Source: Anaerolineales bacterium
Lineage (GTDB): Bacteria; Chloroflexota; Anaerolineae; Anaerolineales; Villigracilaceae
DNA length: 64,000 bases
Direction of reading: 5' to 3'
Assembly (NCBI GenBank): GCA_013140605.1
Contig: JABFSL010000042.1
Location: 31,168-95,167, forward strand
Part shown: piece by piece, positions 46,459 to 50,854 of the stretch
Position numbering within the stretch: position 1 is the first letter of the stretch
Layout of the letters: each line of letters starts with the position of its first letter
Position numbers and translations under genes: made by a program
The notes under the pieces: model-generated
The model's database searches: none
Seen by the model: the letters and a program-made list of their open reading frames with translations, nothing else
What the model was told of the DNA's origin: nothing

Positions 46459-47703
46459 ATGACAAATCTCGAATCTATTGCGCGCAAAATAACCACCATA
46501 CTATTCGCGCAACAATCCCTCGCTTCGGCGGGGTTTATCGCCGCTGCCACACTTAATTCCATTGTTGGCAAGGAACTCAGCGGGCATTCGAATTGGGCGG
46601 GTGTGCCTTCGGCTGTTTATCTTTTAGCGGGCGCGTTTGCCGCATTTATGTGGGGATATGTTTTCGATGCCATCGGTCGGCGCGGCGGATTGACTACTGG
46701 TTTAAGTATCGGCGTTGTTGGTTCTGGTGTGGCTTTCTATGCCATCGCGATCCATTCATTCGCGATCTTTCTTTTCGGCATGATCTTGATGGGTATCGCA
46801 AACGCAGCAGTTCAACTTGGACGCTTTGCGGCGGCGGAAGTGAATCGTCCCGAACATCGCGGACGCGCAATTTCAAACGTGGTTATCGGCGGAACGGTCG
46901 GCTCGGTGGTTGGTCCGTTCGTGGCTGGGCCTGCTGGTTCGCTGATCGGTTCGTGGGGAATTGATGAACTGGCTGGCGCGTATCTTGTCAGTCTCGTACT
47001 GTTTGCAATTGCGGCCATCGTTGTGTTTCTTGGATTGCGCCCCGACCCGCGCGAGATCGGCAAAGAGGTGGCGGAACAATTCCCAGAAACAGTGGCAGGT
47101 TCAGGTCAAGTAAGAAGCGTGCTTGAGATTCTTCGTCAGCCCGCCGCAAGAGTCGCAGTCATCAGCATGGTGTTGGGGCAAATGGTGATGGTGCTGGTGA
47201 TGGTTATCACATCACTTCATATGCGCGGACATAATCACGGCCTGCCCGATATTTCGCTTGTGATTTCTTCGCATACGTTTGGCATGTATGCATTTTCCAT
47301 CATCTCCGGCCGTCTCGCGGATCGGTGGGGGCGTGGGCCTGTCATCATGATCGGCTCGGCTACGCTTGTGATTGCGTGTATCGCGGCCACGATCTCCCCC
47401 GATGTTCTTCCGCTGGGTGTGGCATTATTTTTGCTTGGCCTTGGTTGGAATTTTTGTTTTGTCGGCGGCTCCACTTTGCTGGCCGATCAACTTTCTCCGC
47501 TTGAACGCGCACGCACGCAGGGTTTCAATGACTTGCTTGTGGGGCTTGCCTCTGCGCTTGGAAGTTTGGAAAGTGGATTCATTTTCGCCGCGCTCGGATA
47601 CAACACGATGGCGTATATCAGCGCGGCCTTCGCGCTCATCCCCCTGATCTTCGCTTCTTTCTGGACCTTGAAGCTGGTACGAAAAACCCAGGCATTCTCT
47701 TAA
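46459..47703 (+). CDS. MFS transporter
   Basis: DAIGRRGG and GRLADRWGRG motif A; about 12 TM segments; start moved to 46459. Confidence 0.9.
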   Translation: MTNLESIARKITTILFAQQSLASAGFIAAATLNSIVGKELSGHSNWAGVPSAVYLLAGAFAAFMWGYVFDAIGRRGGLTTGLSIGVVGSGVAFYAIAIHSFAIFLFGMILMGIANAAVQLGRFAAAEVNRPEHRGRAISNVVIGGTVGSVVGPFVAGPAGSLIGSWGIDELAGAYLVSLVLFAIAAIVVFLGLRPDPREIGKEVAEQFPETVAGSGQVRSVLEILRQPAARVAVISMVLGQMVMVLVMVITSLHMRGHNHGLPDISLVISSHTFGMYAFSIISGRLADRWGRGPVIMIGSATLVIACIAATISPDVLPLGVALFLLGLGWNFCFVGGSTLLADQLSPLERARTQGFNDLLVGLASALGSLESGFIFAALGYNTMAYISAAFALIPLIFASFWTLKLVRKTQAFS

Positions 47704-47704
47704 G

Positions 47705-47736
47705 AAAAAAGAGCGAGACGATGGTCTCGCTCTTTT
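47705..47736. terminator. Bidirectional terminator
   Basis: aaaagagcgagac-gatg-gtctcgctctttt. Confidence 0.75.
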
Positions 47737-47747
47737 CATTTGCTTCT

Positions 47748-48050
47748 TTATTTTTCCGAACTTTTGCTGGTTTCGCTCGCGGCAGGTTTGCTTTCAGTTG
47801 AAGATTCCTTCGATGTGCTTTTCTTTTCTTCCTTGTCGGATTTCTTCGCGCTGGAAGTATCTCCCGAAGGTGACTTGTGATCGGTAGCGTAAAAGCCCGA
47901 ACCTTTAAAGATGATCTTGGTTGGGGTGATGACCTTCTTGAGCGCCTTCTTGCGGCACTCGGGACAGGTCTTTAGTGGATTGTCTGTGAAGGATTGATGG
48001 CGTTCGAATTGGATACCACAAGCTTCACAACGATAAGTATAGACTGGCAT
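47748..48050 (-). CDS. FmdB-family zinc-ribbon protein
   Basis: MPVYTYRCEACG..CPEC..FKGSGFYATD; low-complexity tail. Confidence 0.92.
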   Translation of the reverse strand: MPVYTYRCEACGIQFERHQSFTDNPLKTCPECRKKALKKVITPTKIIFKGSGFYATDHKSPSGDTSSAKKSDKEEKKSTSKESSTESKPAASETSKSSEK

Positions 48051-48150
48051 TTTTTCTCCTTGCATTTCTTTCGGAACAACGCTTGAGATTATAGCGTGAT
48101 TGACAGGCACGGACAAGCCTGTGACGCGCCATGTTATAATTTTCTAATAA

Positions 48151-48183
48151 AGGTGACAGTCACTTTAAAAGTGACTGTCACCT
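48151..48183. repeat. Perfect 33-bp palindrome AGGTGACAGTCACTTT-A-AAAGTGACTGTCACCT
   Basis: 16-bp perfect arms between a TGnTATAAT box (48132-48140) and the Rdx gene. Confidence 0.8.
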
Positions 48184-48200
48184 AAATCACGGAGAATTCC

Positions 48201-48443
48201 ATGCTCAAAATCGAGATCACCTACTGCGCGGTTTGACATTACACCAATCGGGCCGTGAGCCTGATGGACGAATTACTCAAGGATTATGAGCACTTGATCG
48301 AATCGGTGGCGTTAATTCCCTCGGACGGGGGCAGGTTCGAGGTCAGCGTGAACGGGAATTTGATCTATTCGAAATTACAGACGAAACGTCACGCTGAGGC
48401 GGGCGAAGTCGTCAATCTTATTCATAAAATGGTTGAAGGATAA
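48201..48443 (+). CDS. Rdx/SelW-family selenoprotein (CxxU), in-frame UGA at 48234
   Basis: RBS ggaga; MLKIEITYCAV-TGA-HYTNRAVSL continues in frame into ORF 48255-48443 (GGRFEV..IYSK Rdx motif). Confidence 0.88.
48244..48267 (+). promoter_or_regulatory. Candidate bacterial SECIS hairpin
   Basis: cca-a-tcgggc-cgtga-gcctga-tgg stem-loop beginning 8 nt after the UGA. Confidence 0.55.
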
Positions 48444-48446
48444 AGA

Positions 48447-49433
48447 ATGGCAAAAAAAGGCAGAGTGTTTTCGGGCGCGCGCCCAACGGGGAAGCAGCAT
48501 CTGGGGAATTATTTGGGTGCAATTAATAATTATGTTGCGATGCAGAATGATTACGAATGTATCTACTGCATTGTGGATGTTCACGCGTTGACCACGGTCG
48601 AGACCACGCAGGAATTAAAACAGAATACTTTGGAAATGGCGTTGGATTGGCTCGCGGCGGGCATTCGCCCCGAAGATTCCATCGTCTTCGTTCAGTCACA
48701 TGTGCCGCAGGTGATGGAACTGCACACCTATCTTTCAATGGTGACGCAATTCGGCAAGTTGACCGATCTGCCGACCTTCAAAGAGAAGGTGCGCCAACAG
48801 CCTGAAAATATTAATTATGGGCTGGTCGGCTATCCTGTGTTAATGACCGCGGACATTGTGCTTTATAAAACGGACATCGTCCCCGTGGGTATTGACCAGG
48901 CTCCGCATATTGAATTTGCGCGCGAGATCGTGCGTTCATTTAATTATCGTTATCACACAAAGGTGCTGGTCGAGCCGCAAGTGAAACATACCGAAGTGCT
49001 GAAAGTCCTTGGCATTGACGGCAAGGATAAGATGGGCAAGAGTTTGAATAATCACATCGAACTCGCCACCACACCCGAAGTGACGGTTAAGCGTGTCAAG
49101 GAAATGGTTACCGACCCTGCGCGTTTGCGCCGCACTGACCCGGGCAACCCTGACATTTGCAATGTGTTCACCATGCACAAACTTTTCTCCCCGAAGGAAG
49201 AAGTGGACATGATCAATGTCGAATGCCGCAAAGCCGGCATCGGCTGCGTGGATTGCAAACTTCGTTTTGCCAATAACCTTAACAAACATCTTGAACCTTT
49301 CCGTGCCAAACGCGCAGAACTGGCTGCCGATCCAAACAAGATTCAAGACATATTGCACGACGGCGCCAACCGTGCCCGCGCCATCGCCGAGCAGACAATG
49401 ATCGAAGTACGCGAGGCGATGCAATTACCTTAG
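48447..49433 (+). CDS. trpS: Tryptophan--tRNA ligase
   Basis: FSGARPTG..HLGNYLG, YPVLMTADI, VPVGIDQ and KMGKS motifs. Confidence 0.96.
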   Translation: MAKKGRVFSGARPTGKQHLGNYLGAINNYVAMQNDYECIYCIVDVHALTTVETTQELKQNTLEMALDWLAAGIRPEDSIVFVQSHVPQVMELHTYLSMVTQFGKLTDLPTFKEKVRQQPENINYGLVGYPVLMTADIVLYKTDIVPVGIDQAPHIEFAREIVRSFNYRYHTKVLVEPQVKHTEVLKVLGIDGKDKMGKSLNNHIELATTPEVTVKRVKEMVTDPARLRRTDPGNPDICNVFTMHKLFSPKEEVDMINVECRKAGIGCVDCKLRFANNLNKHLEPFRAKRAELAADPNKIQDILHDGANRARAIAEQTMIEVREAMQLP

Positions 49434-49487: not shown

Positions 49488-49925
49488 ATGCGCCTATTAA
49501 TCCAGCGAGTTTCCCACGCAAGTGTTGCTGTCGAACAAAAGACCATTTCCATGATCGGGAATGGTCTGCTGATTTTATTGGGCATCGGTCACGATGATGG
49601 GGAAGAGCAAACTGTGTTCCTTGCAGAAAAAACCGCGAACTTGCGAATATTTGAAGATGAACAAGGCAAGACCAATCTCTCAGTATTGGATGTTAATGGT
49701 GAAGCCATCGTTGTTTCACAATTCACCTTGTATGCTGATACTCGTAAAGGACGCCGTCCTTCTTTTATAGATGCGGCATTACCTGAAGCCGCTTCTCCAT
49801 TGGTGGATCGTTTCGTTGAATTGCTGCGCTCCCATGGCGTGCCGACTCAAACAGGTCAATTTGGAGCGCATATGGAAGTGGAAATTCATAATGATGGCCC
49901 TGTAACCATCTGGCTGGAAAAATAA
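49488..49925 (+). CDS. dtd: D-aminoacyl-tRNA deacylase
   Basis: [20 protein letters not shown] and NDGPVT motifs. Confidence 0.96.
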
Positions 49926-50422: not shown

Positions 50423-50595
50423 TTGTCAAGATGAGAATTTCATGATAAAGTTGCGCTCGTAGGATGCAAGTGGCTTTTCGTTGTGGAAGTAAAAAGACGA
50501 GGCTCAAAGCGCAACCTTTGAGTCGTTTTGTTTAACCGCCCGATGAAAGACATACTGCGTCACCTTATTTTTTTATTTGCTGTAGGAGGCAAAAA

Positions 50596-50805
50596 ATGTC
50601 TGATCGTGTAATCGGTACGGTTAAATGGTTCAATGGTACAAAGGGTTTCGGCTTCATCGAACGTGAAGGCGGCCCGGATGTCTTCGTCCACTTCTCTGCC
50701 ATCAAGGGCGACGGCTTCAAGAACCTTCAGGAAGGCCAGAAAGTCGAATTCACAATCGAAAAAGGCCCCAAAGGTTTGCAAGCTGCTGACGTCGTAGTTC
50801 TGTAA
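50596..50805 (+). CDS. Cold-shock protein
   Basis: [22 protein letters not shown] and GPKGLQA motifs. Confidence 0.97.
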
Positions 50806-50818
50806 ATCATAACCAACC

Positions 50819-50854
50819 AAAAAGAGTCCCGCTGAAAAGCGGGACTCTTTTTTT
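50819..50854 (+). terminator. Intrinsic terminator after the csp gene
   Basis: aaagagtcccgc-tgaaaa-gcgggactcttttttt. Confidence 0.85.

Follow-up and report, generated by a model that had tools for sequence, protein, structure and literature searches.

Bacterial SelW-like selenoproteins with a CxxU motif have been known since 2004–2005 and have been catalogued in comparative surveys by Zhang, Gladyshev and co-workers (PMC1088965, PMC1794560); in the Sargasso Sea data, no other selenoprotein family was as abundant (PMC1088965). Bacterial SECIS elements are described as stem-loops that directly follow the UGA on its 3' side and have a G in a small apical loop (PMC1088965). The locus described here also includes a tryptophanyl-tRNA synthetase (TrpRS) gene. 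In the TrpRS of Thermotoga maritima, Cys236, Cys259, Cys266 and Cys269 bind a [4Fe-4S] cluster, and in genomes with two TrpRS the four-Cys motif occurs in one copy only (PMC2954223).

We analyzed a 64,000-nt stretch of DNA from an Anaerolineales bacterium (GenBank assembly GCA_013140605.1, contig JABFSL010000042.1, positions 31,168–95,167), hereafter the window, together with the rest of the genome and those of its relatives. An earlier examination of the letters and open reading frames, referred to below as the sequence-only reading, had proposed a hidden selenoprotein gene in front of trpS and dtd. Our results indicate that 48201–48443 is very probably a real gene for an 80-residue SelW-like selenoprotein, whose UGA at codon 12 is read as selenocysteine (Sec) and which heads a selW-trpS-dtd unit (Table 1).

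Table 1. Features of the proposed selW-trpS-dtd locus in the window.
Feature	Position	Strand	Basis
Putative promoter: conserved block CATGTTATAATTTTCTAATA with extended -10 TGTTATAAT (TATAAT at 48135-48140)	48130..48149	+	Consensus and conservation
Perfect 16+16 nt palindrome, AGGTGACAGTCACTTT A AAAGTGACTGTCACCT, in the leader between promoter and RBS	48151..48183	+	
Shine-Dalgarno sequence GGAG, 6 nt 5' of the selenoprotein ATG	48191..48194	+	Sequence; similar sites in relatives
Proposed SelW-like (Rdx family) selenoprotein gene, 80 codons + TAA (ATG 48201-48203, TAA 48441-48443, both read directly from the sequence)	48201..48443	+	Translation, profile matches, model
Redox motif C-A-V-U, TGC GCG GTT TGA (predicted Sec codon TGA, codon 12, at 48234-48236)	48225..48236	+	
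Candidate bacterial SECIS, 6-bp stem and 5-nt loop CGUGA, 17 nt, 11 nt past the UGA	48248..48264	+	Comparative
Shine-Dalgarno sequence AAGGA of trpS, within the last selenoprotein codons, 6 nt before the trpS ATG	48436..48440	+	Sequence
trpS, tryptophanyl-tRNA synthetase with C-x21-C-x6-C-x2-C	48447..49433	+	TIGR00233, 294 bits
dtd, D-aminoacyl-tRNA deacylase	49488..49925	+	PF02580, 191 bits; TIGR00256, 187 bits

The Reading Frame and Its Conservation

In the table-11 list of open reading frames, the frame opens only at GTG 48255 and gives a product of 62 residues that lacks the first 18 codons. When it is translated from the ATG with TGA as U, the frame yields MLKIEITYCAVUHYTNRAV...KMVEG, a protein of 80 residues with the motif C9-A-V-U12. 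The sequence-only reading was thus right that the open reading frame list misses 18 codons, that the read-through product has 80 residues and a C-A-V-U motif, that a good ribosome-binding site (RBS) precedes its ATG, and that trpS begins 3 nt after its stop codon. The same truncation is found in the public gene calls for the orthologs, which have products of 59–62 residues (e.g., P0015, P0043 and P0077), while the database homologs presented as full-length have W at the Sec column, the result of translating the TGA with table 4.

Among the orthologs that we covered, the TGA is conserved to a degree far beyond chance. In a search of 41 related genomes, all 34 genomes with a match had exactly one in-frame TGA, and the 80 loci of named Chloroflexota genomes all had TGA at the Sec column. 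At the family level, 101 loci provided 88 distinct gene sequences, and TGA was invariant among them, although the codons that flank it varied synonymously (TGC/TGT for Cys, GCG/GCA/GCC/GCT for Ala and GTT/GTC/GTG for Val). Each of the 30 relatives' loci that were read in detail had a start codon 11–12 codons 5' of the TGA, which in most of them was preceded by GGAG or a similar purine-rich RBS. The peptide MLKIEIxYCAV was kept among orthologs with synonymous codon changes, so that the in-frame TGA is flanked on both sides by conservation at the protein level.

The sequence-only reading had held that Rdx-family proteins use CxxC or CxxU, and had suggested aligning homologs for Cys at the TGA column. 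That alignment agreed with it: the present protein and its close relatives have CxxU, whereas Cys takes the place of U in more distant homologs, such as the proteins of known structure 2fa8 (YCTQC) and 2p0g (YCRQC) and two phylum-level homologs, L135 (YCADC) and L136 (YCRRC). In one congener (G003:C58:4709-4949), the ortholog appeared as two overlapping matches in different frames, which points to a frameshift in this copy or to a fault in the assembly.

Protein Family and Predicted Fold

Profile searches were run with the read-through protein after substitution of C for U. The Pfam family PF10262 (Rdx) matched over the entire protein with 74.9 bits (cut-off, 22.6) and the NCBIfam model TIGR02174 (CXXU_selWTH) matched with 62.2 bits (cut-off, 34.2). 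The top-scoring NCBIfam model was the Campylobacter-type equivalog NF041051 (SelTWH_Campy), but its score of 83 bits fell below the cut-off of 88 bits, which places the protein outside that equivalog group.

An AlphaFold2 model built with 30 orthologs as input (pLDDT 95.6, pTM 0.85) comprised the elements E2-9, H15-32, E33-41, E46-50, E53-57 and H69-79. The predicted fold is thioredoxin-like with the order b1-a1-b2-b3-b4-a2 of Rdx proteins, and the CxxU motif is situated, as in that family, at the junction of b1 and a1. Comparison of the model with 2obk, 2p0g, 2fa8 and 3dex by Foldseek gave TM scores of 0.87–0.90 and rmsd values of 1.2–1.3 Å, and mouse SelW and thioredoxins ranked below these bacterial SelW-related structures. 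A profile of the orthologs also retrieved 2fa8, 2p0g and 2obk by sequence, with E-values of 1e-10 to 3e-15. The proteins 2fa8 (A. tumefaciens Atu0228), 2p0g (V. cholerae) and 2obk (P. fluorescens) share the fold of the model, superpose with it over 75–78 residues and are 26–36% identical to it in sequence; they differ in having CxxC, the second Cys of which is found at the column of U12. With two families above their curated cut-offs, the fold of the model and the structural matches all in agreement, the Rdx/SelW-type assignment made from the letters alone can be retained. The protein is most likely a thiol/selenol oxidoreductase. To our knowledge, no redox function has yet been defined for any bacterial SelW-like protein.

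The Selenocysteine Machinery of the Genome

The sequence-only reading had supposed that the organism has selABCD, and selA, selB, selD and the gene for tRNA-Sec (selC) were all located in the genome. A genome profile search detected selA with 554.8 bits. The selB gene is split by an assembly break, and the ends of contigs C37 and C115, which share an overlap of about 40 codons containing two mismatches, together encode a full-length protein. The tRNA-Sec has a UCA anticodon, an acceptor stem of 8 bp and a T stem of 5 bp (the 8/5 form), and a long extra arm. The selD gene (354 bits; C36:13079-14011, minus strand) has an in-frame TGA of its own, in the context ...SACAG*ASK..., where the asterisk marks the TGA. 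We take this position to be that of the active-site Cys of E. coli SelD, and the genome would then encode a second selenoprotein, the selD product.

TGA continues to serve as a stop codon: it terminates 376 of the 1765 long open frames in the genome, and several orthologs of the selenoprotein gene themselves end at TGA. Given the Sec machinery, the conserved TGA, the Cys forms of the protein and the continued use of TGA as stop, the TGA of codon 12 is best read as a Sec codon. Its UGA would be decoded by the SelA, SelB, SelD and tRNA-Sec of the genome itself.

A Candidate SECIS Hairpin

The hairpin that the sequence-only reading had noticed just 3' of the UGA was located at 48248–48264 and gains support from covariation. 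Its strands are UCGGGC-CGUGA-GCCUGA, and in agreement with the description of bacterial SECIS elements it is found directly 3' of the UGA and has a G within its loop CGUGA. In the alignment of genus- and family-level sequences, 90.6% of the cells assigned to its stem were paired, vs. at most 47% when the pairing partners were slid. The most informative pair joins the codons of Arg17 and Leu21, which in the 88 distinct sequences occurred as CGG/CTG in 71, CGA/TTG in 11, CGG/TTG (a G-U pair) in 5 and as the mismatched CGA/CTG in 1 (Fisher p = 1.5e-9, from counts uncorrected for phylogeny). The outer pair of the stem alternates between C-G (63) and U-A (13), and GU at loop positions 2–3 is invariant. 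Synonymous diversity drops at exactly codons 17–21, to 1.1–1.75 effective codons; for most Leu, Ala and Ser positions in other parts of the gene the figure is about 2–5. Folding of 48225–48300 as a single sequence did no better than shuffles (z = -0.24), so the case for a SECIS at this position is a comparative one. In the proposed mechanism, the 17-nt hairpin 11 nt after the UGA probably recruits SelB.

Further comparison revealed that the position of the hairpin differs among lineages. The proximal hairpin A, which is that of the window, was favored in 84 of 85 family-level sequences, with a mean dG of -8.1 kcal/mol across these 85. A distal hairpin B, 4 nt further 3', was favored in all 19 sequences from the rest of the order and from other Chloroflexota classes; one example from outside the family, CCGUCA-GUU-UGACGG, has many compensatory variants. 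Hairpin B (alignment columns 19-35) was also considered as the SECIS of the window and was rejected, its dG there being -2.0 vs. -8.0 kcal/mol for hairpin A. Compared with loci L034-L042 and L123-L141, this genus and family have the predicted SECIS 4 nt nearer to the UGA. On this comparative evidence, the SECIS element appears to have shifted its register by 4 nt within a conserved coding sequence.

The minimal SECIS of E. coli fdhF is said, in work of 1998 by Liu et al., to be the 17-nt upper stem-loop, located 11 nt past the UGA. The candidate resembles the fdhF element in its length of 17 nt, in its 11-nt spacer and in the GU of its apical loop. It differs from it in sequence and in having no bulged U, and its binding by SelB is a prediction.

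Organization of the Proposed selW-trpS-dtd Unit

The placement of the selenoprotein gene at the head of trpS and dtd, as had been proposed from the letters, is borne out by synteny in relatives and by the predicted promoter upstream. The order selW-trpS-dtd was found in 27 of 30 order-level loci, and in the remaining 3 dtd was directly next; among the named Chloroflexota genomes it was found in 79 of 80. Outside the order, trpS was linked at none of 19 loci, where the neighbors were unrelated and no recurrent neighbor gene was found. In relatives, selW and trpS were separated by spacers of 2 to 314 nt, and the long ones held assorted, unrelated palindromic inserts and no conserved element.

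A 20-nt block with an extended -10, CATGTTATAATTTTCTAA(C/T)A, lies 5' of the selenoprotein gene in most genus-level relatives. The corresponding block of the window is a putative promoter, as judged from consensus and conservation. The selenoprotein gene was unmatched in four congeners and two other family members (L143-L148; G011, G020, G022, G178, G214 and G265), all of which have kept selA and have trpS and dtd; none of the six had a remnant of the gene next to trpS. In the four congeners, in which the sequence upstream of trpS was read (G011, G020, G022 and G178), the promoter block is 35–45 nt before trpS. As the same block is directly 5' of trpS in the congeners that have no selenoprotein gene, the promoter would serve the whole unit, and the first cistron, the selenoprotein gene, can be dispensed with. 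We therefore propose, from gene order and conserved elements, that selW, trpS and dtd form one transcription unit with a conserved extended -10 promoter and a short leader, in which selW would be the first cistron.

The perfect palindrome in the leader holds two GTGACnGTCAC sub-palindromes and may act as an operator or fold into a leader hairpin. Its reading as a conserved operator was rejected, the GTGACnGTCAC core being present in just 6 of 110 relatives; different palindromes are apparently found at the same spot of the leader in several other relatives, as judged by eye. A T-box (Rfam RF00230) was not found in the window at the gathering score, in 47700–48500 at E <= 1, or in the loci of 20 relatives, and the leader here is just about 55 nt long. 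Nor was any other known RNA found upstream of the selenoprotein gene or between it and trpS.

Two further features were observed near the unit. On the minus strand, 47748–48116 encodes a divergent Zn-ribbon protein (PF09723, FmdB-type) with a long tail rich in Ser, Lys and Glu, and the position of this gene next to the operon is conserved in the genus and family. On the plus strand, 50459–50852 is a full-length match to the cspA thermoregulator of Rfam (RF01766, 119.6 bits), upstream of a cold-shock protein gene (50596–50805) and overlapping its start.

The Linked TrpRS

Four Cys residues of the linked TrpRS align with Cys236, Cys259, Cys266 and Cys269 of the T. maritima TrpRS (2g36). Their spacing, C-x21-C-x6-C-x2-C, fits the motif C-x(21-24)-C-x6-C-x2-C of the anticodon-binding domain, by which this enzyme would be assigned to the [4Fe-4S] type (PMC2954223). 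The motif was found in 98 of 100 linked trpS copies, the other two being truncated at contig ends. A second TrpRS, 39% identical to the linked one and lacking the four-Cys motif, is encoded outside the window (within C98:82876-88970) in a trp operon of the order trpE-trpS2-trpGD-trpC-trpF.

The location of a gene for a predicted thiol/selenol oxidoreductase beside that for an Fe-S enzyme, with which it is presumably co-expressed, is suggestive. If the SelW-like selenoprotein worked together with the [4Fe-4S]-type TrpRS, and possibly with Dtd as well, its role could be to maintain the cysteines of the predicted cluster site in reduced form, or to link TrpRS expression to selenium or to the redox state; the trpS of the trp operon, which has no cluster motif, would then serve as a back-up. 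Such a partnership is quite unlikely, since the congeners that have no selenoprotein gene keep the four-Cys TrpRS and the linkage ends at the boundary of the order.

Alternative Explanations for the In-Frame UGA

The public gene calls, with their products of 59–62 residues, are what would be expected if the TGA were a true stop and the real gene had 59–62 codons starting from GTG 48255 or ATG 48264, with the 11 upstream codons as untranslated leader. The shortened product would, however, be without strand 1 and the entire Rdx redox motif, and those 11 codons are conserved as protein through synonymous changes; moreover, the start codon that is conserved among relatives is the upstream one rather than that at 48255, with a GGAG-type RBS in most loci. 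A true stop is therefore exceedingly improbable. A pseudogene, or a sequencing error that created the TGA in a former CxxC gene, has nothing specific in its favor beyond the split match in one relative (G003), which is maybe a frameshifted copy, and is effectively refuted by the occurrence of TGA at the same column in all of more than 110 independent assemblies and by a frame that is otherwise intact and under purifying selection. It is also highly improbable that the UGA is read as Trp, Cys or Gly, whether by near-cognate decoding or under a reassigned code. The frame is open under table 4 and some pipelines give W, but no long conserved gene is interrupted under table 11, many long frames end in TGA, and so do orthologs of the selenoprotein gene itself. 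Insertion of another residue would also leave aside the complete Sec machinery, the conserved hairpin at the SECIS position and the homologs with Cys.

Compatible with decoding of the UGA as Sec is the suggestion that the codon is in addition a selenium-dependent gate, at which premature termination after failed Sec insertion would reduce trpS and dtd expression through polarity; the sequence-only reading had suggested such polarity on trpS. The 3-nt distance to trpS, the lack of a promoter-like site between the two genes in this genome and the second trpS, which has no Fe-S motif and could act as a back-up from the trp operon, are in line with such a gate. It is very unlikely all the same, given that trpS has an AAGGA RBS of its own, that the spacer of relatives ranges so widely and often holds unrelated palindromic inserts, that congeners have cleanly lost the selenoprotein gene while retaining promoter, trpS and dtd, and that no rut-like or attenuator element was identified.

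Comparison with Known SelW-Like Selenoproteins

The family has long been known, and our result is mainly a correction of annotation. The error is a systematic one, in which the public records are fragments of 59–62 residues without the active site or have W in place of Sec, and it touches a gene present in hundreds of Chloroflexota genomes. The use of selenium by these uncultured Anaerolineales is also documented, with SelD and the SelW-like protein both predicted to be selenoproteins. The comparison of hairpins A and B provides a clean comparative case in which a SECIS seems to have moved by 4 nt inside a coding sequence, and the function of bacterial SelW-like proteins gains a mild lead from the constant association of the gene with an Fe-S type TrpRS. 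Minor points of interest are the position before that TrpRS gene, the clean loss of the selenoprotein gene from some congeners, and the 4-nt shift.

Like the catalogued bacterial SelW-like proteins, the protein described here has about 80 residues, a CxxU motif near the N-terminus and a predicted thioredoxin-like Rdx fold. As in the catalogued genes, the candidate SECIS is located directly past the UGA with a G in its small apical loop, and Cys forms are found elsewhere; genes of that family are, as here, routinely miscalled by gene finders. The present gene does not differ from them in kind; what sets it apart is its position ahead of trpS-dtd and a predicted SECIS that is 4 nt closer to the UGA than in the rest of the order and phylum.
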